A stretch of DNA of 32,254 nt from an uncultured Candidatus Saccharibacteria bacterium (GTDB taxonomy: Bacteria; Patescibacteriota; Saccharimonadia; Saccharimonadales; CAYVSP01), in contig CAZSHK010000004.1 of NCBI GenBank assembly GCA_964606965.1, positions 4,170-36,423 of the forward strand. The letters are read 5' to 3'. This document shows positions 2,786-30,929 of the stretch, in pieces (the first letter of the stretch is position 1; each line of letters starts with the position of its first letter). The translations under genes and the position numbers were made by a program. Under the pieces are notes generated by a model, which was not told where the DNA came from, searched no databases, and saw nothing but the letters and a program-made list of their open reading frames with translations.

Positions 2786-4318
2786 ATGCAGTGGTTGAAT
2801 AAAATTGTCGATGACGTTGTGGCCAAGCAGCCCAAAGGCGAGATTCTGATTGAGTCGGGTAGTTCGCCCTCCGGGACGTACCATCTTGGTCATTTACGCG
2901 AGCTAGTAACTTGTGACGCTATTTTATTGGAACTGCAAAGGCGGGGAAGGCAAGCTCGTCATATCCAATTTGTGGATGATTTTGATGCTTTCCGTAAACT
3001 ACCAATTAGTTTACCGGCCGACTATGAACAATATCTAGGTGTACCGCTTTGTGATATTCCGGCTCCTGACGGCTCAAAGCAGTCTATGGCAGATTATTTT
3101 TTGCAGGGATTGAAAGATGCCTGCACAGAACTAAACATAGAAGTGGAGTATGTGCGTGCGCACCAGAAGTATCGGTCAGGTTGGTATGTGCCAGCTATCG
3201 AAAAAGCATTGTCTAAGGTGCCAGAGGCGCGCAAAGCCCTGGAAACCGTTTCCGGGCGCAAACTCGAAGATACCTGGTCACCAATACAGGTTAGAGAAGG
3301 CGAGCGATTAGTCAAACGAGCTTTTGAATCAATTGACATGGCCACTAAGAATCTAGCTTATAAATCTACCGAGGGCCAGTCTAAAACAGTGGCCTATGAT
3401 AAAGGAGGGGTCAAGCTAGACTGGCGCTTGGACTGGCCTGCACACTGGTGGCTACAAAAAGTTGCGGTTGAACCCTCGGGACGTGATCACATGACCAAGG
3501 GGGGCAGTTTCGATACAGGCGTAGAAATTGTACGTGATGTTTACGATGCTGAGCCACCATACCCAGTGGCTTATGATTTTATAAACATGGTCGGTGACAC
3601 CAAAAAAATGAGTGCCAGCAAAGGCACTGGTCTTGATGCTGTAGAAGGCGCCAAACTAATGCCTCCAGAAGTCGTACGCTATTTTATTTTGCGCCCACCG
3701 CCTAGTAAACGACTCTATTTTGATCCGGTTAACGGTGTTGTTCAGATGATGGACGAATATGCCGCCTTTAGTGCTAAACCTGATAAAACTGCCGACGAAG
3801 AACAGTTGTTGTACATTGCTACCAGAGGCAATACTACCCGAACAGTTAGTAGGATACCGTTCTCTCATTTGGTAGCCAGCTACCAAGCATCGTTGAAGGA
3901 TGTAGATAAGACCCTGGCAATCATTAAACGGACTGAACATGCTAAATTGGCGACCGAAGACGCCGATATCATCAGGAAAGAACTGAAATTTGTAGGCGAG
4001 TGGCTCAAGTTGCGTGCTCCTGAGGAGGTTAAATTCGAGTTGACCAGCAAAATTGACTCTAATCAATTCAACGAAAAACAAAAGCAATTCTTGCGCGACT
4101 TGGCTGAAAAAGTCGAGCAAGCACCGGCTGAAGCTGATGGCGAATGGTTTCACAAGACTATTTATGATTTCAAAGAAACTAGCAATCTGGAGCCAAAAGA
4201 ACTTTTTAGCACGCTTTATACTGCCCTGATCGGTAAAACCGCTGGCCCGCGTGCCGGTTGGTTCTTAAGTATTTTGCCGCGCGACTGGCTAATCAAACGC
4301 CTAAGACTGGAAGAGTAA
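2786..4318 (+). CDS. lysK: Lysyl-tRNA synthetase, class I
   Basis: Class I aaRS signatures HLGH (HIGH-like) and KMSAS (KMSKS-like). The 510 aa architecture is typical of class I LysRS rather than the class II LysS. Confidence 0.9.
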   Translation: MQWLNKIVDDVVAKQPKGEILIESGSSPSGTYHLGHLRELVTCDAILLELQRRGRQARHIQFVDDFDAFRKLPISLPADYEQYLGVPLCDIPAPDGSKQSMADYFLQGLKDACTELNIEVEYVRAHQKYRSGWYVPAIEKALSKVPEARKALETVSGRKLEDTWSPIQVREGERLVKRAFESIDMATKNLAYKSTEGQSKTVAYDKGGVKLDWRLDWPAHWWLQKVAVEPSGRDHMTKGGSFDTGVEIVRDVYDAEPPYPVAYDFINMVGDTKKMSASKGTGLDAVEGAKLMPPEVVRYFILRPPPSKRLYFDPVNGVVQMMDEYAAFSAKPDKTADEEQLLYIATRGNTTRTVSRIPFSHLVASYQASLKDVDKTLAIIKRTEHAKLATEDADIIRKELKFVGEWLKLRAPEEVKFELTSKIDSNQFNEKQKQFLRDLAEKVEQAPAEADGEWFHKTIYDFKETSNLEPKELFSTLYTALIGKTAGPRAGWFLSILPRDWLIKRLRLEE

Positions 4319-4319
4319 C

Positions 4320-4622
4320 ATGAAAGCAATCTGGCAGGGCAAAATTGTGGCCGAATCACCACAAGAAGATTTAATTTTTATTGAAGGTAACTGGTATTTT
4401 CCACCAAGCAGCGTCAATAAAGAGTTTCTAGAAGACAGCGATACGCCCTATAACTGTCCCTGGAAAGGCGACTGCAGCTATTACAATATTTGTGAAGGAG
4501 AGAAGTGTAGCGTAGACAGCGCCTGGACATATAAACAACCCCTAGCCAGTGCTATCGATAAGGTCAAACAAGACTTTAGTAACTACGTGGCTTTCTGGCG
4601 TGATGTCCGTGTCGAGGAATAA
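4320..4622 (+). CDS. DUF427 domain protein
   Basis: 100 aa with the family pattern CPWKGDCSYYN ... AWTYKQP ... VAFWRDV. Starts 1 nt after the lysK stop. Confidence 0.8.
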   Translation: MKAIWQGKIVAESPQEDLIFIEGNWYFPPSSVNKEFLEDSDTPYNCPWKGDCSYYNICEGEKCSVDSAWTYKQPLASAIDKVKQDFSNYVAFWRDVRVEE

Positions 4623-5201
4623 ATGCTAACAGTTAAATTACCTGCTATTGAAGCGGCGCCAAAGCTTTTAGGCTGCCAATTGGTGCGTCACACGTCGATA
4701 GGTACTTTAAGTGTTAAAATTGTCGAAACTGAGGCTTATAACCAAGATGATCCAGCCAGCCATAGTTTTAGAGGTTTAACCAAACGCACAGCGCCGATGT
4801 TTAAGGCTGGTGGCTATTTGTATGTATATTTTACCTACGGTATGCATTACTGCCTGAATATTGTGGTCGGGCAAGCTGGCAGAGGGGAAGCAGTTCTTAT
4901 CCGAGCCGCTGAGCCGCTTGAGGGCACTGAAATTATGATGCACAATCGTGGCACAGATAATGTATTACAGCTAACAAATGGCCCCGGTAAACTTACTCAG
5001 GCCCTGGGAATTAGAGATACCAAGTTATCTGGTCATATGCTCGGCAAAGAGAGCCTAGAACTGTTACCACCTGCTGAACCGATGTCTGAAGAAGAAATTG
5101 GCATTTCCGCACGCATCGGTATTACCAAGGCGACTGATCAACTTTGGCGGTTTTATATCAACGACAATCGATATGTTTCCAGGCAGACTATTTCAACTTA
5201 G
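4623..5201 (+). CDS. mpg: DNA-3-methyladenine glycosylase (Mpg/AAG family)
   Basis: ETEAY, DPASHSFRG and YVYFTYGMHYCLN motifs. Starts immediately after the DUF427 stop. The 3' end overlaps convergent msrA by 14 nt. Confidence 0.9.
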   Translation: MLTVKLPAIEAAPKLLGCQLVRHTSIGTLSVKIVETEAYNQDDPASHSFRGLTKRTAPMFKAGGYLYVYFTYGMHYCLNIVVGQAGRGEAVLIRAAEPLEGTEIMMHNRGTDNVLQLTNGPGKLTQALGIRDTKLSGHMLGKESLELLPPAEPMSEEEIGISARIGITKATDQLWRFYINDNRYVSRQTIST

Positions 5202-5715
5202 CTGCAAATTTTTGCTGAAGTTTTTGGATTTTAGGATCAATAACTATTTGGCAGTAGGCCTGACCAGGATTATTGTTATAAAAATTCTGGCTATTTTCGT
5301 CAGCCGGCCAGAACTTTTCATACGGTGCTAACTGAGTAACGATCGGATCTTTGTAAAGTGTAGGTACAAAATCTTTTATCATAGCTTGTGCAACTTTTTT
5401 CTGCTCCGCGTCATGATAAAAAATAACCGACCGATAAATTTCGCCGACATCTGCGCCCTGACGGTTTAGGGTAGTAGGGTTATGCATGGCAAAAAATATT
5501 TCCAATAGTTCTTTATAGGTAACTATCTCTGGATCAAAAGTTATCTGTACGACTTCAGCATGGCCAGTTGTCATAGTGTAGACCTGTTGACTGGTCGGAT
5601 TATCTAAGTGTCCGCCGCAGTAGCCCGAAACTACCTTTTCGACACCTTTAACGCGTTGGTAGAACGCCTCGAGGCACCAGTAGCAGCCGCCACCTAAAGT
5701 TGCCAGAGAATTCAT
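5188..5715 (-). CDS. msrA: Peptide-methionine (S)-S-oxide reductase MsrA
   Basis: N-terminal GGGCYWC active-site motif and the GHAEVV motif; 175 aa. Confidence 0.93.
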   Translation of the reverse strand: MNSLATLGGGCYWCLEAFYQRVKGVEKVVSGYCGGHLDNPTSQQVYTMTTGHAEVVQITFDPEIVTYKELLEIFFAMHNPTTLNRQGADVGEIYRSVIFYHDAEQKKVAQAMIKDFVPTLYKDPIVTQLAPYEKFWPADENSQNFYNNNPGQAYCQIVIDPKIQKLQQKFAAKLK

Positions 5716-5740
5716 GCATTTAAGTGTAAACCAGATTCCA

Positions 5741-5749
5741 TGGTATAGT
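5741..5749 (+). promoter_or_regulatory. Extended -10 element (TGgTATAGT) 7 nt upstream of the heliorhodopsin ATG, implying a leaderless or near-leaderless mRNA
   Basis: TATAGT at 5744-5749 preceded by TG at 5741-5742. ATG at 5757 with no SD in between. Confidence 0.45.
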
Positions 5750-5756
5750 CTAAGAA

Positions 5757-6548
5757 ATGGCTAAGAAGTCGAATAAAGAGGTTTTGAATTATCAGTTGCA
5801 GCGCTTGCACCTAGTCAGTGCAATTATATTTGGTTTCTTGGGTTTAGCTGTCTGGTTCTTAATGAAGCCAACTAGTTATCCATTTGTTGTCAGTCATGCC
5901 ACAAGCGACGAACTGGCCAGCCAAAGCACCACCGTATTTGCGCCAGCCATTCATCACATTATTGATATAGACATGCGCTGGCCGGCGGCTGCCCTGATGG
6001 TAGTCGGCCTTGTAACAGCCATTCTTGCATTAACCCATTGGCGCAAACAGTACGTTAAGCAAATGGGGAATCGTTTATCGCCACTGACATGGGTGAGCAT
6101 GGGCGGAATCATGCCGGCGTTGATGTTTGAAATCATAGCCATATTCAGCGGTGGACAAGACATTTTATACCTCAAAATGATAGCCGGGCTGGTCTTACTA
6201 TCCGGCATCTTAGGCTACATGGCCGAACGCGAGAATATGCGTGTACGCCGTCCGCAATGGATAAATTTCTGGTTGGTTTTTGCTAGTGGGGCGCTAGCTT
6301 GGTTCGCTTTGGCTACAATGATAGTGTCTACGTCATTGTTTGGAATGGTTCGTCTGCCATGGTTCGTCTACGCTCTTATGGTTGTTTTAACGGTCGCCTC
6401 ACTATCAGCAGTTACCAACCTGTGGTTTGAGTTAAAGGCCAAAAATTGGGCTAAAGATTTCAACACCGTGGAGCGTAACTATCTACTTATAAATCTGTTA
6501 GCTAAAGCTTCTTTTGTGTTGATAATGGTGCTAGGTTTGAAGAAATAA
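5757..6548 (+). CDS. Heliorhodopsin-like 7-TM retinal protein
   Basis: 263 aa, 7 predicted TM helices, and a long loop between TM1 and TM2. By manual alignment to heliorhodopsin 48C12 (recalled from memory), ERNYLLINLLAKASF matches ERAYIVLSLVAKSAL, placing the Schiff-base Lys at K250 (codon 6504-6506). PWFVYA matches PGFVYG, and His18 and His94 align with H23 and H80. Confidence 0.8.
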   Translation: MAKKSNKEVLNYQLQRLHLVSAIIFGFLGLAVWFLMKPTSYPFVVSHATSDELASQSTTVFAPAIHHIIDIDMRWPAAALMVVGLVTAILALTHWRKQYVKQMGNRLSPLTWVSMGGIMPALMFEIIAIFSGGQDILYLKMIAGLVLLSGILGYMAERENMRVRRPQWINFWLVFASGALAWFALATMIVSTSLFGMVRLPWFVYALMVVLTVASLSAVTNLWFELKAKNWAKDFNTVERNYLLINLLAKASFVLIMVLGLKK

Positions 6549-6594: not shown

Positions 6595-7392
6595 ATGGCA
6601 AATACTTATTGGCGACAGCGCTCACAGCCCTATAAACCAGGCCAACAGACGCCGTTTAAAATCAGTCGTTCTAAAATAGAACTTTTTAAGCAGTGTCCAC
6701 GCTGCTTCTGGTTAGATGCCCGACTCAAGATTAAGCGCCCCGACGGCCCGCCATTCCAAATCAATAAAGCAATTGATGAGCTACTTAAGAAAGAGTTTGA
6801 TGTTTACCGACAGAAAGCTGAACCACATCCTTGGATGACTGAATATGAGATAAAAGCTGTACCAATGCAGCACCCCGAACTAGACAAATGGCGGCAGAAT
6901 TTTACAGGGGTTTTTACGCTGCATAAGCCTACTAATTTGCATGTATTTGGTGCCATTGATGATATTTGGATAGACGAGAACGGACAGGCGATTGTAGTCG
7001 ATTACAAGGCCACGGCCAAAGCATCAGAAATAAATATAGATGCCGATTGGCAAATAAGCTATAAACGCCAACTTGAAGTCTATCAATGGCTTCTCAGGCA
7101 GAACGATCTGAATGTAAATAATACTGCTTATTTTGTGTACACCAACGGTCGGCTAGATCTGGATGGTTTCTTTGATAAAGTTGAATTCCGTACCAAGATA
7201 ATTCCGTACCAAGGCGATGACAGTTGGGTTGAACCCACACTGGCCGAGATGAAAGAATGCTTGGAAGGCGATATGCCGGCGGTCGGTACAGCGGCAATGG
7301 GAGGTGAATGCGATTATTGTAGCTACGCCAGAGCTCGTACCGAACTTACTCTAAAAAATATTCAATCACGAAGCCAAACTAAGCTAGTCTAG
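6595..7392 (+). CDS. PD-(D/E)XK nuclease, Cas4/RecB-like, with four Cys (putative Fe-S cluster)
   Basis: GAIDDIW ... VVDYKAT (D...DxK), QLEVY (QhxxY), N-terminal CPRC and C-terminal CDYC cysteine pairs. Confidence 0.75.
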   Translation: MANTYWRQRSQPYKPGQQTPFKISRSKIELFKQCPRCFWLDARLKIKRPDGPPFQINKAIDELLKKEFDVYRQKAEPHPWMTEYEIKAVPMQHPELDKWRQNFTGVFTLHKPTNLHVFGAIDDIWIDENGQAIVVDYKATAKASEINIDADWQISYKRQLEVYQWLLRQNDLNVNNTAYFVYTNGRLDLDGFFDKVEFRTKIIPYQGDDSWVEPTLAEMKECLEGDMPAVGTAAMGGECDYCSYARARTELTLKNIQSRSQTKLV

Positions 7393-7427: not shown

Positions 7428-7808
7428 GTGATTAAAAAAATTCTTTTTATTGAGGACGAAACGCAACTAGCCGACCTGTATGCCATGGTACTACGCAAAG
7501 AGGGCTATGGGGTCACAGTTGCGAAAGATGGTCTGGAGGGCTTCAAGTTAGCCCAAAATGGCGATTTTGATCTGTTATTACTTGATTTAATGCTGCCTAA
7601 TATGTCCGGTTTTGATATTTTGAAAGCGTTGCGTGACCCACAGAAATCACCTGACTTTAAAGCCCGGATTATTGTTTTGACAAACTTTGGGGAAGATCCC
7701 GAAACTCGTCAAAAAATGGAAGCCCAAACCGACGGCTATCTGCTAAAAGTAAACTACACACCCCGCGCTCTGGTGGAATATATAAAGAATCTTCCATCTA
7801 AAAATTAG
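7428..7808 (+). CDS. Single-domain response regulator (receiver only, CheY-like)
   Basis: GTG start. Canonical receiver residues are present: ED pair (IEDE), phospho-acceptor Asp in LLLLDLMLP, Thr in VLTN, Lys in LLKV. No output domain. Confidence 0.88.
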   Translation: MIKKILFIEDETQLADLYAMVLRKEGYGVTVAKDGLEGFKLAQNGDFDLLLLDLMLPNMSGFDILKALRDPQKSPDFKARIIVLTNFGEDPETRQKMEAQTDGYLLKVNYTPRALVEYIKNLPSKN

Positions 7809-7843: not shown

Positions 7844-9139
7844 ATGCTTGATATACAGTTTATCCGCGATAATCCAGAATTTGTTGCAGAAAAGTCCGCC
7901 CAAAAAGGCTATAAGGTTAGCATCACCGATTTGCTGAAGCTCGATAATGACCGCCGCGAATTAATAGCCAAGATTGAGGCACTGCGTGCTGAGCGTAATA
8001 AATTAGCAGACGCACTAAAAGGTGGCAACCCATCACAGGAGCAGTTGGAGCGAGGTAGGGAGGTCAAGGAACAGGTCAGTCAGGCGGAAGCGCTGCTAGG
8101 CCCTCTTAATGACAACTTCCTACAGCTGCTTAAACAAGTTCCTAACATGCCGACAGCTGATGTGCCGGTGGGGGCCAGTGAAGATGAAAATGTCGTGGCT
8201 AAAACTGTGGGCGACAAGCCTACTTTTGATTTTGAACCCCAAAACCATTGGCATATTGCCGAAGCCAAAGGCTGGATTGATAAGGAACGTGCCGCCAAAG
8301 TTACTGGTGCGCGCTTTTTATATCTAAAAGGTGACTTGGTAAGGCTGCAATTCGCCCTAATGCAGTTTGGGTTGGATGTGCTTAGCAATGAGAAGACTCT
8401 ACAACAAATTATCGATGATAATAAGTTAAAAGTTGGTAATAAAGCATTCGTGCCGGTTCTGCCGCCGGCCATGGCACGTACCGAAGCCTTTGAGGCTACA
8501 GGGCGGCTTAATAAAGAGGAGCAGACCTACAAGCTTGCCGACGAAGACTTATGGCTCAATGCCAGTGCCGAACATACAATGGCGCCGATGTACTTGAATG
8601 AAATCCTGGATGAGGCAGATCTGCCAATTCGCTATGTAGGCTATACCACTGCTTTTAGGCGCGAGGCCGGCACCTATGGTAAAGACGTGGAAGGCATGTT
8701 GCGCCTCCATCAGTTCGATAAACTGGAGATGGAAAGCTTTGACTTACCGGAAAACTCGCTGCAAGAGCATTTATTTATGATTGCCGTTCAGGAATACTTA
8801 ATGTCTGCTCTCAAATTACCATATCAAGTGTTGCTCAAATGTACCGCCGACATTGGTGGACCCAATGCTAGAGGTGTAGACATAGAGGCTTGGTTGCCGG
8901 GTCAAAATCGCTACCGGGAAACGCATACGGCCGACTACATTACCGATTATCAGGCACGCCGCATGCAAACTCGCGTCCGTCGCGCCGATGGAAGGATTGA
9001 GCTCATACACACCAATGATGCTACGGCGTTTTCTCAGCGTCCGCTGATAGCAATTATAGAAAATTACCAGAATAAGGACGGGTCGGTACGGGTTCCTGAC
9101 GTTTTACAACCATACATGGGAGGGAGGGTCGAAATATGA
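7844..9139 (+). CDS. serS: Seryl-tRNA synthetase
   Basis: N-terminal coiled-coil arm plus class II core (FRREAGTYGKDVEGMLRLHQF motif 2, ENYQ near the C-terminus). Confidence 0.94.
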   Translation: MLDIQFIRDNPEFVAEKSAQKGYKVSITDLLKLDNDRRELIAKIEALRAERNKLADALKGGNPSQEQLERGREVKEQVSQAEALLGPLNDNFLQLLKQVPNMPTADVPVGASEDENVVAKTVGDKPTFDFEPQNHWHIAEAKGWIDKERAAKVTGARFLYLKGDLVRLQFALMQFGLDVLSNEKTLQQIIDDNKLKVGNKAFVPVLPPAMARTEAFEATGRLNKEEQTYKLADEDLWLNASAEHTMAPMYLNEILDEADLPIRYVGYTTAFRREAGTYGKDVEGMLRLHQFDKLEMESFDLPENSLQEHLFMIAVQEYLMSALKLPYQVLLKCTADIGGPNARGVDIEAWLPGQNRYRETHTADYITDYQARRMQTRVRRADGRIELIHTNDATAFSQRPLIAIIENYQNKDGSVRVPDVLQPYMGGRVEI

Positions 9140-9495
9140 TTCAAAAACTGGAAATCTCAGGTGTTCACACCGAAGTCGATAAGAAACTGCGAGAATACGT
9201 CACCAAAAAAATTGGCAAATTAGATCGTTTTACGCCACGTAAAACCCGTGAAGCATTGCACGCTGAAGTTATCCTCAAAAACACCAAAGCAAAAGATAAA
9301 AAACACTGTGTGTGCGAGGTGGTGATGATTCTGCCGCACGATAAAATTATCGTTACTGAAGCAACTATGAACATGTATGCTTCCGTCGATATAGTTGAAA
9401 CCAAGCTCAAAAATTTACTCAAAAAGTACAAAGAGACGCATTCTACGCTTGCACTGCATAAAAGAATGCTCTCACGCATGCGCCGCCGCGTATAA
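9136..9495 (+). CDS. hpf: Ribosome hibernation promoting factor / RaiA family (short form)
   Basis: S30AE-family N-terminus (ISGVHTEVDKKLREYVTKKIGKLDRF), 119 aa. ATGA overlap with the serS stop. Confidence 0.8.
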   Translation: MIQKLEISGVHTEVDKKLREYVTKKIGKLDRFTPRKTREALHAEVILKNTKAKDKKHCVCEVVMILPHDKIIVTEATMNMYASVDIVETKLKNLLKKYKETHSTLALHKRMLSRMRRRV

Positions 9496-9502
9496 TATTC
9501 AT

Positions 9503-9928
9503 ATGGTTTATCTATTTCTAGCAATGGTTTTCTATAGTACGGCGTTGCTCTTTATTGCGGCCGCTTCGCGTCATACCAGCGCGACACTGGCCACAGCTAT
9601 TGTTAACGGTATTTCGGCCATAATTCCTATTATTCTGGCCGTTGCGTTACTCAATAAGAAAGAAGTTATTGGTCATCGTTTTGGGGTGGTAATGGCCCTA
9701 TGTGGTGGTGTTGCCATAGCCTTTTTTGGTCTTTCTCTAACTAAAGCCTTAACCCAGAATAAGGTCGGTATTGTTTCGCCGGTTGTCTTTGGTGGCGCTA
9801 TTTTTGCCTCCACCATTGCCAGCTTCTTTATCTTTAAAGAGAAAACGACACCTGTTCAAAGCTTGGGACTAATGTTAGTTGGCTTGGGCTTGATAGCCAT
9901 TATCTATGCCCGCGCCACCGCGAAATGA
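9503..9928 (+). CDS. Small EamA/DMT-superfamily-like membrane protein
   Basis: 141 aa with 4-5 TM helices and an EamA-like C-terminal pattern. ATG 9503 is preferred because the longer ORF (from 9395) overlaps hpf. Confidence 0.5.
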   Translation: MVYLFLAMVFYSTALLFIAAASRHTSATLATAIVNGISAIIPIILAVALLNKKEVIGHRFGVVMALCGGVAIAFFGLSLTKALTQNKVGIVSPVVFGGAIFASTIASFFIFKEKTTPVQSLGLMLVGLGLIAIIYARATAK

Positions 9929-21471: not shown

Positions 21472-21894
21472 ATGATGGTTATGGATAACGCTGCACCTGT
21501 TACGCCACCTGCCAATGCGGCACCACCTAAAAAGATTCTACTGGTCGAAGACGATGACGCTTTGGCGGCGGTATATCAAACGCGCCTAGAGGCTGAAGGC
21601 TTTGCTATTAAGCGTGTTCCGAATGGAGAAGACGCCCTGGCTTCTGCCCAAGCCTATCGGCCCGATTTAATTCTGCTTGATGTCATGATGCCCAAAGTCA
21701 GTGGTTTTGATGTGCTTGATATTTTGCGTAATACGCCGGAGACGGCCAACATAAAAGTGGTTATGCTTACGGCTCTAAGTCAGGAAAGTGATAAGGAGCG
21801 AGCCCGCTCTTTAGGAGTTGACGACTATTTGGTAAAAAGCCAGGTGGTAATTGCAGACGTGGTTGAACGAATTCGACACCATTTAGGCCTATAG
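21472..21894 (+). CDS. Single-domain response regulator (receiver only)
   Basis: VEDDD acidic cluster, phospho-acceptor Asp in LILLDVMMP, Thr in MLTA, Lys in YLVKS. Paralogous to 7428-7808. No output domain. Confidence 0.88.
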   Translation: MMVMDNAAPVTPPANAAPPKKILLVEDDDALAAVYQTRLEAEGFAIKRVPNGEDALASAQAYRPDLILLDVMMPKVSGFDVLDILRNTPETANIKVVMLTALSQESDKERARSLGVDDYLVKSQVVIADVVERIRHHLGL

Positions 21895-21972: not shown

Positions 21973-22524
21973 ATGTCTGATCTTCCCGAATTTGATCCTA
22001 GTTTCGACCCATCTGCTGAAGCAGCTGAACTTGATAATGGGCTTACAACTATGACGGAAAATAATATTGAAGCTGTGAAACAACTATTTGAAACGCCTCC
22101 AAGGATTATTGCCGATATAGAACTGGAACATCTACCCGAAATGTATGATCATCAAGTTACGGTAGTGAGTGACGATGCACGTCACCGGGCTTTGCTTGAT
22201 GATCAGTTGAAGGTACTCGGCGTAAGACAGTTAGTGGTCGAAGAACCATACCTAAGCGGAACACGTCGTTTATATGAAGCTGAGATGCTAGTTGGTAAAG
22301 AGTCGAAGCAAGTAGGACTAGCTTACTGGTTGGACGAGCAGCACACTCAGGATACTAAAAGGGGAGCGGTTCTTAGATTACGGGCAACTCGTGATGACCC
22401 ACGTCAGCCAACAGAGTTTCAAAAGGCAGCAAGCTCGCTGAGACAAGAAGTGGGAGCCAGGATTGGTTTGAGACGCCGTATTGGTCAACACCTACTTACG
22501 CCAAGCCCACGACGCTGGGAATAA
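21973..22524 (+). CDS. Hypothetical protein (183 aa; acidic N-terminus, Arg-rich C-terminus)
   Basis: Clean ORF directly behind a near-consensus promoter. No recognisable domain, TM helix or signal peptide. Confidence 0.6.
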   Translation: MSDLPEFDPSFDPSAEAAELDNGLTTMTENNIEAVKQLFETPPRIIADIELEHLPEMYDHQVTVVSDDARHRALLDDQLKVLGVRQLVVEEPYLSGTRRLYEAEMLVGKESKQVGLAYWLDEQHTQDTKRGAVLRLRATRDDPRQPTEFQKAASSLRQEVGARIGLRRRIGQHLLTPSPRRWE

Positions 22525-22526
22525 CA

Positions 22527-22568
22527 CCGTAACATCAGATTGACTTTTCATTATGCTTATGTTATTAT
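22527..22568 (+). promoter_or_regulatory. Promoter of orphan gene 2: conserved 18-mer CCGTAACATCAGATTGAC including the -35 TTGACT, 17 nt spacer, TATTAT; leaderless
   Basis: 18-mer at 22527-22544 (identical at 23291-23308). -10 at 22563-22568; ATG 22575 is the 7th nt after the -10. Confidence 0.6.
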
Positions 22569-22574
22569 AGAATC

Positions 22575-23279
22575 ATGAACGGTTCAGAAAAGCGCGCAGA
22601 AATAACCGAACCCAAACTCACTAGTGGCAGACGGATAGCTAGAGGACTCCGTCAAATCTTTAAATCAGGTAAATCAGAACGTGCCATACCAGCACATACT
22701 ACCGATACGGACGAGCCATCTCTTAAAGGTTGGGCAGATGCCCGTAATCGAATTGATGAAAGGTTCAGAGAATCGGCTGAAATGCATAAGTTGATCGAGG
22801 AGGGTGGACCAGTAGCTGAGCTTCTAGGCAAGTTTAATAGTCGCTTGGCCGATATTGCCGGTGGTAAGATTGCTGCCGCGAAAGTTATGTTGTCGGCTAA
22901 CGAGGTTACCACTCAAGAAGCAGTGAAGGGTCTGACGGGAGCGCTATTACCCGAACCTATGGATATAAGCGGATTGTTCAGTATGCTTTACGGTGGAAAC
23001 ACCCAAGATATAGAACTTGAGCCCGTAAGACATTATAGAGAGAGGCCTTTTTCTGCGACCGATGCCTACGGACTTTCGTTATTTAGCGCACAGCCCATCG
23101 CAACATATGTGATGGATGGTTATCACAACCGGGCAATGAAAGAACTAATTGTTCCCACTGAAGTGGCTGGGGTATCATTGGTATTTTCATCACTCGGTCT
23201 CACGCATCCAGATAATATGTCAGAAAATCCGTTTACGATTGGCTTGGTCATTGGTGATCCGGCACTCGGCGTAGCATAA
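22575..23279 (+). CDS. Hypothetical protein (234 aa)
   Basis: Clean ORF behind its own promoter. No recognisable domain. Confidence 0.6.
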   Translation: MNGSEKRAEITEPKLTSGRRIARGLRQIFKSGKSERAIPAHTTDTDEPSLKGWADARNRIDERFRESAEMHKLIEEGGPVAELLGKFNSRLADIAGGKIAAAKVMLSANEVTTQEAVKGLTGALLPEPMDISGLFSMLYGGNTQDIELEPVRHYRERPFSATDAYGLSLFSAQPIATYVMDGYHNRAMKELIVPTEVAGVSLVFSSLGLTHPDNMSENPFTIGLVIGDPALGVA

Positions 23280-23290
23280 AAACAACAACG

Positions 23291-23332
23291 CCGTAACATC
23301 AGATTGACAATACATAGAATTTATGCTAATAT
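23291..23332 (+). promoter_or_regulatory. Promoter of orphan gene 3: the same 18-mer with -35 TTGACA, 17 nt spacer, TAATAT; short leader with AGGA
   Basis: 18-mer at 23291-23308, -10 at 23327-23332, AGGA at 23341-23344, ATG at 23355. Confidence 0.6.
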
Positions 23333-23354
23333 GTGTTTTTAGGAAACAAAACAA

Positions 23355-24233
23355 ATGTCTCTAGCCGAAGCATCATCGTCACCACCCCCAGAATTGAGGC
23401 AAGCGCCTTTTGGTAGCGCTAATCTTCGTCCGGAGGAACTGGCGTTTGTAGAAGCCAGAATGCAAGAGCGCGATGCTCAACCACCCCAAGCTTATGAACA
23501 ACCTATTAATCATGAGGAATACGCGGAAGATTTCAGTAACTGGCTTAATGGTAACCTTGATCCGGAAACGGGGATGCAGACCTTCTACCGCTTTGTTTAT
23601 GAACCGGCAGTGGAGGCCGTTCAACAGTATGGCGGCGTAACTTCACGGGTAGTTCAAAATTTTGGAGCTGGTAGTGAGGTAGCTGCCTATGACGCTCTAA
23701 GGCAACTTTCTGAGGGACAGGTAACTGAGGATATAAAAGCCGTTTTTGCTAACTTCAGACCGTTTATGGACAGGCACCGGCACAGTGGAGGTCGTTTGAA
23801 AGACCAAAGAGATGCCGTAGACAACCTGTTGAGCGATGGCCAAGTAGGTGATCTGATTAAGGAGTACGCTGTTCAAGCGGCTGCCGAAATAGCTGCTCCA
23901 GCTGATCCGGATGCTTTGTTTGGTATGGCTATTCATGATAGCAATAGTGGTTCGCCTAGGCGTGGTACTTTTGAGGAGCTTTTTTATGGCGCACTTCACT
24001 TTACGAGTAAGGCAGATTTGAACAAGGCAGATGCGTCATGGAATCATGCAACACATCGTATTACCGTCAAAGTCTACCCCGGCCAGCTAGCACCAACCGG
24101 TAGGTTTGAGGATGGTGCATTTGTTGGCGAATTTCACGATATAGAGTGGGAATGGACAGGCTTCGGAGCCATCTATCCCATAAATGATGAACAAATTATT
24201 GTCGAGCGGGTGCAGGACATTAAGTCAGATTAA
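23355..24233 (+). CDS. Hypothetical protein (292 aa, acidic)
   Basis: Clean ORF with no recognisable domain. Ends 4 nt from the stop of convergent rpmA. Confidence 0.6.
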   Translation: MSLAEASSSPPPELRQAPFGSANLRPEELAFVEARMQERDAQPPQAYEQPINHEEYAEDFSNWLNGNLDPETGMQTFYRFVYEPAVEAVQQYGGVTSRVVQNFGAGSEVAAYDALRQLSEGQVTEDIKAVFANFRPFMDRHRHSGGRLKDQRDAVDNLLSDGQVGDLIKEYAVQAAAEIAAPADPDALFGMAIHDSNSGSPRRGTFEELFYGALHFTSKADLNKADASWNHATHRITVKVYPGQLAPTGRFEDGAFVGEFHDIEWEWTGFGAIYPINDEQIIVERVQDIKSD

Positions 24234-29853: not shown

Positions 29854-30555
29854 ATGGCGCACAAGGCAACGGTGGATCAGCGTTTGCTTTTAGCACTAGC
29901 CGAGCAGCTCAAAGTGCCACTGCTTCAGATTGCCCGTCGCGCAGAATTATCACAAAACAGTCGTCGGCCAAAGCAGCAGCTGGAAGCCATTGAATTAACG
30001 GCCGATAATGCCCTTAGCCTGATTGATCATTACTTATTAAGTACCCGTTTGGCCATGGAAGGTGCTGTTTTAGAACCCGTATCAGTTGCTTCTGTATTGC
30101 ACGATACGGCACAATCTCTGAGTAAGTTGGCAAGCGACTATCACTGCAAGCTAGAACTACATTTGAGTGGCCGGTACGAGCCAGTCATGGCCCATCGAGA
30201 AGGCTTGGCGGCAGCCCTTTTAGATATTGGCCATGATATGATCGAGGCCGAAGTACAGCAAAGTAAAAAACCCGTCGTAACGCTAGCTGCTCACCGGGGC
30301 AAAAAGGGAATTGTGGCCGGGGTATTTGGTGATACTGAAGGTCTAACAGCTGACATGTTTCGCCGCTCGCGCAAGCTATACGGACAAGCTAAACAACCGC
30401 TTAACACTGTCTCGGCTCATCCGGTGGCGGGTATTTTTGTCGCTGATTCGCTTCTACATTCAATGGCCACACGCCTGCGTGTAGCTCACCACCACAAACT
30501 AAGTGGTCTAGCTGCAACCTTGCTCCCCAGTCAGCAACTAGCTTTACTGACATGA
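29854..30555 (+). CDS. Histidine-kinase-like protein (DHp plus CA-like fold) lacking the phospho-His and key ATP-binding residues (pseudokinase)
   Basis: LALAEQLKVPLLQI aligns to the H-box SHELRTPL with His replaced by Glu. The N-box position reads LLDIGHDMIEA (no Asn). G1-like FGDTEGL and G2-like PVAGIFVA are degenerate. No TM or sensor domain. Confidence 0.6.
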   Translation: MAHKATVDQRLLLALAEQLKVPLLQIARRAELSQNSRRPKQQLEAIELTADNALSLIDHYLLSTRLAMEGAVLEPVSVASVLHDTAQSLSKLASDYHCKLELHLSGRYEPVMAHREGLAAALLDIGHDMIEAEVQQSKKPVVTLAAHRGKKGIVAGVFGDTEGLTADMFRRSRKLYGQAKQPLNTVSAHPVAGIFVADSLLHSMATRLRVAHHHKLSGLAATLLPSQQLALLT

Positions 30556-30929
30556 AAATTATGCTCATTGAACCGGATATGCAATTGGGCCGAATCTATG
30601 CGAAGGCACTTCAGCGAGTGGGTCACCAAGTCCACTGGCAGCGTAATGCTCAAGAGTCTATTGATGTAGCCGATAAGGTTCATCCAGAGGCGGTAATTCT
30701 TGAAGTGCAGCTGGCGCGACACAATGGAATTGAATTCTTGTACGAGTTTCGTAGTTATCCCGACTGGCAACAGGTACCCGTCATACTCCACACCAATGCA
30801 ATTGAACTGCCAGCAGATGAGCGTTTGTTAGCTCGTCTGGGTGTGCAGGCAATTCTTTACAAGCCACAGACAACACTGGCTACTTTAATTGCCACTGTCG
30901 AGCGGTTGCGCGATACTGCCTTAGTATGA
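30552..30929 (+). CDS. Receiver-domain protein with Glu in place of the phospho-acceptor Asp (pseudo-receiver)
   Basis: PEAVILEVQLARHNG aligns to PDLVLLDxxMPxxDG, giving D to E. The conserved Thr (ILHTN) and Lys (LYKPQ) are retained. ATGA overlap with the upstream kinase-like gene. Confidence 0.7.
   Translation: MKIMLIEPDMQLGRIYAKALQRVGHQVHWQRNAQESIDVADKVHPEAVILEVQLARHNGIEFLYEFRSYPDWQQVPVILHTNAIELPADERLLARLGVQAILYKPQTTLATLIATVERLRDTALV

Follow-up and report, generated by a model that had tools for sequence, protein, structure and literature searches.

Does a heliorhodopsin (HeR) gene set among repair genes of an uncultured Candidatus Saccharibacteria bacterium encode a light sensor, and is it functionally tied to these neighbours? 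The question is raised by a window of 32,254 nucleotides (the whole stretch of DNA analysed here), in which an initial annotation, made from the sequence alone, described an HeR-like gene of 263 aa with 7 transmembrane (TM) helices and proposed a light-linked damage-response neighbourhood. HeR function is largely open and few partner-specific roles are known. The gene in question is the following open reading frame (ORF):

5757..6548, forward strand: HeR-family coding sequence, an ATG-to-stop ORF of 263 aa, N-terminus cytoplasmic.

This ORF encodes a genuine heliorhodopsin homologue. Its product matched the Pfam family Heliorhodopsin (PF18761) with 77.3 bits (E=1.5e-21), far above the gathering cutoff of 26.7 bits, residues 15-253 covering 233 of the 242 profile positions. 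A phmmer search against PDB chains retrieved the two structurally known HeRs TaHeR and 48C12 with E=1.2e-8 and E=4e-7, respectively. The AlphaFold2 model, computed from a 74-sequence alignment (pLDDT 93.9, pTM 0.89), contains seven TM helices and a long A-B beta-hairpin (strands 40-50 and 61-72) between TM1 and TM2. When this model was compared with known structures using Foldseek, the ten best PDB matches were all HeR entries, with TM-scores of 0.81-0.89; the match to TaHeR 6is6 reached 0.89 with a root-mean-square deviation of 1.6 A, and type-1 rhodopsins were found at 0.5-0.6 (maximum 0.61). Loop charges are distributed unevenly, with 12 K+R and 1 D+E on the predicted cytoplasmic side and 3 K+R and 5 D+E on the outer side. 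This positive-inside pattern predicts the inverted, N-terminus-inside topology of HeRs. The features of type-1 microbial rhodopsins were not found: the sole Pfam match is PF18761, the TM7 motif is NLLAK and not DxxxK, and the topology is inverted. The gene, its length and its seven helices were thus correctly described at the outset, as judged by profile score and model. The protein is intact and selectively maintained, with an HeR fold, a cytoplasmic N-terminus and an extracellular beta-hairpin. It shares with TaHeR (6is6) and 48C12 (6su3) the Pfam family, the 7TM fold (TM-scores 0.85-0.89), the topology, the hairpin and the TM7 lysine, at a sequence identity of only ~19-20%. The hairpin carries a conserved tip:

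5907..5921, forward strand: D51-E52-L53-A54-S55 (DELAS), tip of the A-B beta-hairpin on the extracellular side; it does not vary among the 13 sequences of family alignment A1.

The DELAS tip is nearly invariant across related loci. Among HeRs, polar hairpin tips of the form xDEx are already known (PMC9385722).

To what kind of HeR does this protein belong? A word-index protein search returned 15 relatives; an exhaustive HMMER search returned 455 representative clusters, 66 of them at E<=1e-30, and revealed a wider subfamily. A profile search yielded 76 proteins, of which some bear the label Candidatus Saccharimonadales. A scan of genome contigs gave one locus (L001) from an uncultured Candidatus Saccharibacteria metagenome-assembled genome, whose HeR is 77% identical. 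More than 120 homologues of the neighbouring MsrA were found at 68-81% identity, several again labelled Saccharimonadales. These labels on close HeR and MsrA homologues agree with the Saccharibacteria host group suggested initially. HeRs have already been published in Saccharimonadia, which account for 80 of 98 Candidate Phyla Radiation (CPR) HeRs, usually with SLVAK-type motifs (PMC9166423). The HeRs described there by Chiriac et al. (2022) come from the same host group, in which they are common, and form their own clades; their commonest TM7 motifs are SLVAK, SLIAK and SFVAK, in contrast to the NLLAK motif and missing counterion of the clade that contains our query. This query clade falls within an HeR subfamily that is restricted to CPR, evolves fast and occupies one variable slot of a conserved housekeeping gene block. 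Its HeRs are 52-77% identical, with nonsynonymous divergence (dN) of 0.16-0.43; dN alone is reported since synonymous sites are saturated and the NG86 estimate is undefined. HeR diverges much faster than its flanks (29-39% identity versus 56-81% for LysRS, SerRS and the PD-(D/E)XK nuclease), a pattern consistent, as far as sequence comparison goes, with relaxed or shifting constraint.

We then asked whether the residues expected around a retinal Schiff base are present. Residues were mapped with a 158-sequence L-INS-i multiple sequence alignment (MSA) including 48C12 and TaHeR, together with phmmer alignments; unless stated otherwise, equivalent positions carry 48C12 numbers. The positions concerned are:

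6504..6506, forward strand: K250, putative retinal Schiff-base lysine (48C12 K241), placed by phmmer and MSA, in LLAKASF.
6087..6098, forward strand: T111-W112-V113-S114 in place of R-W-x-E, with Arg104 replaced by Thr and the counterion Glu107 by Ser.
6102..6116, forward strand: one-residue insertion G116 and Pro120 in TM3, clade-specific, just after the counterion position.
6471..6473, forward strand: E239 (48C12 E230, TaHeR E227), invariant in A1, candidate distal counterion.
6492..6494, forward strand: N246 at the position of Ser237 (SxxxK motif), placed by MSA.
6390..6431, forward strand: TM6 segment with T212, S215 and A218 for F203, F206 and F209, and E225 for Q216, aligned without gaps, with P-FVY and K-K as anchors.
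6129..6176, forward strand: E125 (TM3) and K140 (TM4), in the outer half, normally hydrophobic.

Both methods placed K250 at the Schiff-base position, as first proposed, and this lysine is kept in every query-clade sequence covering the position (P0001-P0009, L010 and L011). H18 and H94, taken initially for the two conserved histidines, fared differently. The phmmer alignments and the MSA ruled them out as equivalents of H23 and H80, since H18 falls on 48C12 N16 and H94 on N87; the H23 and H80 columns hold F25 and A88 in the query, and the canonical His pair is absent.

The counterion side of the cavity is remodelled as well. Instead of the canonical TM3 glutamate (E107 in 48C12, E108 in TaHeR), Ser114 is found in all nine clade proteins and Met in L011, in a column that is acidic in 94 of 158 sequences (D 67, E 27, Y 15, S 14, G 10, F 6). 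The Arg104 column holds R in 143/158, and T there is confined to the query clade plus P0018. With Thr111 replacing this arginine and E239 kept, the canonical Arg104-Glu230 ion pair is missing. The G116 insertion column is gapped in 146 of 147 non-clade sequences, and P120 replaces G, S or A. Active-site positions vary to an unusual degree within the subfamily. In the SxxxK motif, Asn at the Ser237 position is the commonest residue in the CPR subfamily (N 49, S 40, D 28 and G 25 of 158). Across the MSA, a non-acidic counterion residue is often paired with Asp at the 237 position, which produces a type-1-like DxxxK motif. The signature separating the clade from the rest of the subfamily comprises T111, S114, the G116 insertion, P120, S215, A218, E225, F235 (Y226) and Y154 (W146). 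Compared with TaHeR and 48C12, the query thus differs by S114, T111, F25, A88, N246, the TM3 insertion and proline, the replacement of F203/F206/F209 by T/S/A, and the E125-K140 pair, and shares the equivalents of W105, Y92, E149 and E230; those of W173, M115 and F162 are also retained. As judged from these alignments, the query clade is an uncharacterised one lacking both the canonical counterion and the cavity arginine.

How might a retinal Schiff base be accommodated in such a cavity? In canonical HeRs the cavity contains two ion pairs, the protonated retinal Schiff base (RSBH+) with Glu108 and Arg105 with Glu227, the latter described in TaHeR, where it caps the far end of the cavity (PMC9385722). 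Loss of both Arg104 and Glu107 removes one positive and one negative charge; with S114 and T111 neutral and E239 kept, the Schiff base could be balanced by E239 or by an imported anion. HeRs whose counterion has been neutralised take up chloride or other anions, which keeps the Schiff base protonated (PMC9385722). The forms concerned, 48C12 E107A/Q and TaHeR E108A or TaHeR at low pH, resemble the query in having a neutral counterion residue. They are, however, mutants or acid forms which have Arg104/105, whereas in the query clade the change is natural and fixed, the arginine is lost and TM3 is remodelled.

The reading that we favour, at somewhat better than even confidence, is that of a non-pumping photoreceptor using scavenged retinal, with a Schiff base stabilised by an anion or by E239. 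Retinal would be scavenged from the environment or from a host and bound by HeR. The protonated Schiff base would be stabilised by an anion entering the cavity, as in the counterion-neutralised HeRs, or alternatively at a distance by E239. HeR would then act as a slow, non-pumping photoreceptor modulating a partner protein. Strict retention of K250 in the clade, despite dN of up to 0.43, is a sequence argument in favour of retinal binding. If so, this naturally fixed clade without Glu counterion and cavity Arg would offer a ready test of anion versus distal-carboxylate stabilisation of the Schiff base.

Several observations weigh against this interpretation. Among the 17 polar residues reported by Kovalev et al. 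as highly conserved across HeRs (PMC7049168), 12 are altered in the query, and only the equivalents of Y92, W105, E149, E230 and K241 are kept. TM3 carries an insertion and a proline beside the Schiff base, and the aromatic TM6 wall, which belongs to the retinal pocket (PMC7049168), is gone; with such remodelling of TM3 and TM6, retinal binding is not assured. The Q216 to E225 change also puts an extra carboxylate near E157, which leaves the charge book-keeping above incomplete. Moreover, the Schiff-base lysine is replaced in 38 of the 146 non-clade subfamily members (~26%), the remainder of the protein being kept. The replacements (R, Q, L, T, A, V, I and others) arose many separate times. 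Among positional orthologues, Arg is found in L006/7, L013-16 and L019, and Ile in L018. These lysine-less orthologues retain the fold, the DELAS tip, the adjacency to MsrA, the genomic slot and intact ORFs, which suggests a core role with no need for retinal. Lysine-less proteins of this kind ('HeR-noK') are apparently common in CPR.

These data could instead be explained by a retinal-free, light-independent membrane protein of HeR fold, in which K250 is retained but non-chromophoric and which would serve as a scaffold, as a regulator or, through its DELAS tip, in envelope or host contact. Besides the repeated loss of the lysine and its lysine-less orthologues, the lack in the query clade of the counterion, of R104, H23 and H80 and of the TM6 aromatic wall speaks for this explanation, and flotillin-associated rhodopsins provide a precedent for a lysine that is kept with no retinal bound. 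We nevertheless consider it rather unlikely. Had it no role, a buried TM lysine should have drifted, as happened elsewhere in the subfamily, but it is strictly kept in the clade. The pocket substitutions are mostly toward smaller residues, so that the pocket is enlarged and not filled, and W112, W182, M123 and F171 are retained. The comparison with known cases of natural retinal-binding loss, Rh-noK and flotillin-associated rhodopsins, applies to the lysine-less relatives; these rhodopsins are of a different family (type-1 relatives), and the query clade keeps its lysine. In flotillin-associated rhodopsins with a kept lysine, bulky side chains fill the pocket and exclude retinal, in contrast to the widened pocket of the query.

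A more far-reaching proposal is put forward tentatively, and we hold it to be doubtful as a whole. The query clade would represent a natural counterion-less HeR, its chromophore depending on an exogenous anion (e.g. chloride) or on the distant E239; its Schiff base might be deprotonated and absorb in the UV/blue. The core function of this Saccharibacteria-specific subfamily would be light-independent, given that lysine-less positional orthologues keep fold, tip and slot, and retinal would be an add-on regulator of a membrane function. The repeated lysine loss in this subfamily could show whether HeR-fold proteins have light-independent roles.

Where would retinal come from? No match to carotenoid or retinal biosynthesis families was found in any window ORF of at least 90 aa, in line with the initial annotation, which had seen no such gene in the window; this result is compatible also with a retinal-free protein. 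External supply had been suggested at the same time, and published work does propose it: in Saccharibacteria carrying type-1 rhodopsins, blh was not found and retinal supplied by the host was proposed (PMC9296517). In TaHeR, retinal is documented to enter through an opening of the pocket (PMC9296517). These type-1 rhodopsins (SacR, DTS proton pumps; Jaffe et al. 2022) occur in the same phylum and share the proposal of external retinal with our favoured reading; they nevertheless belong to another family with opposite topology, as reflected by the TM-scores of 0.5-0.6 between type-1 structures and the query model. With the present locus, there is further evidence for photoreceptor genes in Saccharibacteria that have no visible retinal pathway.

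We also considered whether the charged pair E125 and K140 could be part of a transport path. A light-gated proton or anion pathway, by analogy with halide-binding D85S bacteriorhodopsin, might use these outer-half residues, T212 and S215 on TM6 and the Ser at the counterion site. Charged residues in the outer half were noted by Kovalev et al. as potentially functional (PMC7049168), and some viral HeRs transport protons (PMC9448325). However, an acidic residue at 125 is accompanied by a basic one at 140 in 80 of 81 sequences, and this covariation makes a structural salt bridge probable. The remaining outer half is hydrophobic as read from the sequence, and the subfamily tolerates loss of the lysine. 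Ion transport therefore appears very improbable to us.

The second part of the question concerns the neighbours. The genes listed in the initial annotation (mpg, a divergent msrA, a nuclease and a response regulator) were recovered as ORFs with the corresponding Pfam matches:

4623-5201, forward strand: MPG, neighbour.
5188..5715, reverse strand: msrA (GGCYWC subtype), PF01625 197 bits, immediate divergent neighbour of HeR.
6595-7392, forward strand: PD-(D/E)XK nuclease, downstream of HeR.
7428-7808: single-domain REC, 880 bp downstream of HeR.

In the 22 HeR-bearing loci (L001-L022), the gene order is ProRS-GreA-LysRS-[DUF427, MPG]-MsrA-HeR-[RsmE, PDH, CM/PDT, aminotransferase]-PD-(D/E)XK-[REC]-SerRS-HPF-SecA. 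MsrA lies directly upstream of HeR in 18 of the 19 loci having upstream sequence; in L004, HeR is present without MsrA. Two MsrA subtypes, 35-50% identical to each other, occupy this one slot, GGC[YF]WC always divergent from HeR and GCFWG always co-oriented with it, and both occur inside the query's own HeR clade. Examples of the slot are:

window 5188-5715; L001 2883-3347; L003 3367-3852; L010 1543-1991: MsrA slot, two subtypes.

The MsrA of L010 aligns in two pieces and may be frameshifted.

Such an arrangement could reflect a light-regulated partnership, in which HeR would bind MsrA and boost the repair of photo-oxidised methionine in the light, on the model of the HeR pairs with glutamine synthetase, photolyase and an ABC transporter. 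Beyond the adjacency itself and its persistence with two subtypes in two orientations, the gap of 13 bp between MsrA and HeR in L003 would permit co-transcription, some published HeRs regulate enzymes encoded by neighbouring genes (PMC9529153, PMC9769723, PMC11109279), and a general link between HeR and oxidative stress has been proposed (PMC8612252). The ten HeR neighbour classes that have been published do not include MsrA, an absence that we counted on the side of this hypothesis; the literature searched contained no paper linking heliorhodopsin to methionine sulfoxide reductase. The control is provided by two HeR-less relatives (five contigs, L023-L027), in which tblastn found no HeR. Their flanks are 63-75% similar to the window, on a par with those of HeR-bearing relatives. 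In these two Saccharimonadales, the positions of MsrA, the nuclease and SerRS are unchanged, and the HeR slot is taken by a HAD hydrolase; their MsrAs are 75% and 71% identical to that of the window, of the same subtype, in the same block and in the same opposing orientation. None of these neighbours therefore depends on HeR for its position, and the MsrA adjacency is mainly inherited gene order. Coupling of MsrA and HeR, which adjacency alone (18/19, two subtypes) had suggested, was downgraded after this control. The exchange of subtypes does not by itself indicate selected adjacency, since LysRS classes also swap in place, and besides the HeR without MsrA in L004, the lysine-less orthologues keep the MsrA next to them. 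We regard a light-regulated MsrA partner as improbable. The known cases, AbHeR with glutamine synthetase, TfHeR with photolyase and OcHeR with OmrDE, share with it the idea that HeR modulates a neighbouring gene product; the present locus differs in that MsrA keeps its place in relatives without HeR.

The other neighbours were also removed from consideration. The nuclease lies within one gene of SerRS with or without HeR, and is 3-4 kb from HeR in L005 and L019-L022. MPG is limited to the window, L001 and L004, and REC to the window, L003 and L009. All three genes were accordingly rejected as parts of an HeR module: the nuclease tracks SerRS, REC and MPG are lineage-specific and found in few close relatives, and the window contains three orphan REC genes:

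window 7428-7808, 21472-21894, 30552-30929: three single-domain REC genes.

No HeR-dependent module of mpg, msrA, HeR, nuclease and response regulator was thus found across L001-L027, and the proposed light-linked damage-response neighbourhood found no support. Guilt by association with repair genes here amounts to background synteny, exposed only by the HeR-less relatives. In sequencing run SRR9179560, contig L002, identical to the window and carrying HeR, was found beside the related Saccharimonadales contig L027, which has the same block and no HeR, indicating that co-occurring populations differ in HeR carriage.

A link of HeR to MsrA through methionine content was also considered. The HeR contains 15 Met (5.7% versus 2.2% in the other window proteins). 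This richness was not robust, the clade ranging from 2.0 to 5.6% and TaHeR having 4.4%, and the candidate was discarded.

The spacer upstream of HeR was inspected for expression signals:

5716..5756, no strand: msrA-HeR divergent intergenic region of 41 bp, containing TGGTATAGT, which resembles an extended -10 element and whose end lies 8 nt before the ATG of HeR.

The position of this element suggests, from the sequence, a nearly leaderless transcript. Scans for consensus promoters and terminators around the HeR gene gave nothing above shuffled controls. On the other side of msrA, mpg and msrA are convergent and overlap by 14 bp (5188-5201).

Further observations concern the surrounding block. 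LysRS is swapped in place, with class I (PF01921) in the window and most relatives and class II (PF00152 and OB fold) in L003 and L023/L025:

window 2786-4318; L003 1862-3370; L023 9707-11215: LysRS slot between GreA and MsrA.

A DUF427 gene recurs by MsrA in several loci, both with and without HeR:

window 4320-4622; L006 52-354; L015 4224-4523; L023 7617-7919: DUF427 (PF04248) beside MsrA.

No histidine kinase domain was detected anywhere in the window. The REC gene at 21472 is followed by three ORFs without Pfam match (21973-24233). Neither Rfam families nor tRNAs were found in the window.

In the HeR-less relatives, a Pup-ligase family gene (PF03136) lies between the nuclease and SerRS (L023 4082-5509, L024 2567-3994) and a WhiB-family gene (PF02467) adjoins MsrA (L026 7555-7893, L027 2126-2383). 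Both are families typical of the Actinobacteria, which usually serve as hosts of Saccharibacteria. Finally, within 9136-9928 of the window, ~100 bp are shared between the HPF gene and an EamA ORF at 9395-9928. On the identical contig L002, the gene is called from window position 9524 onwards, and the true start of EamA is probably downstream of 9395.

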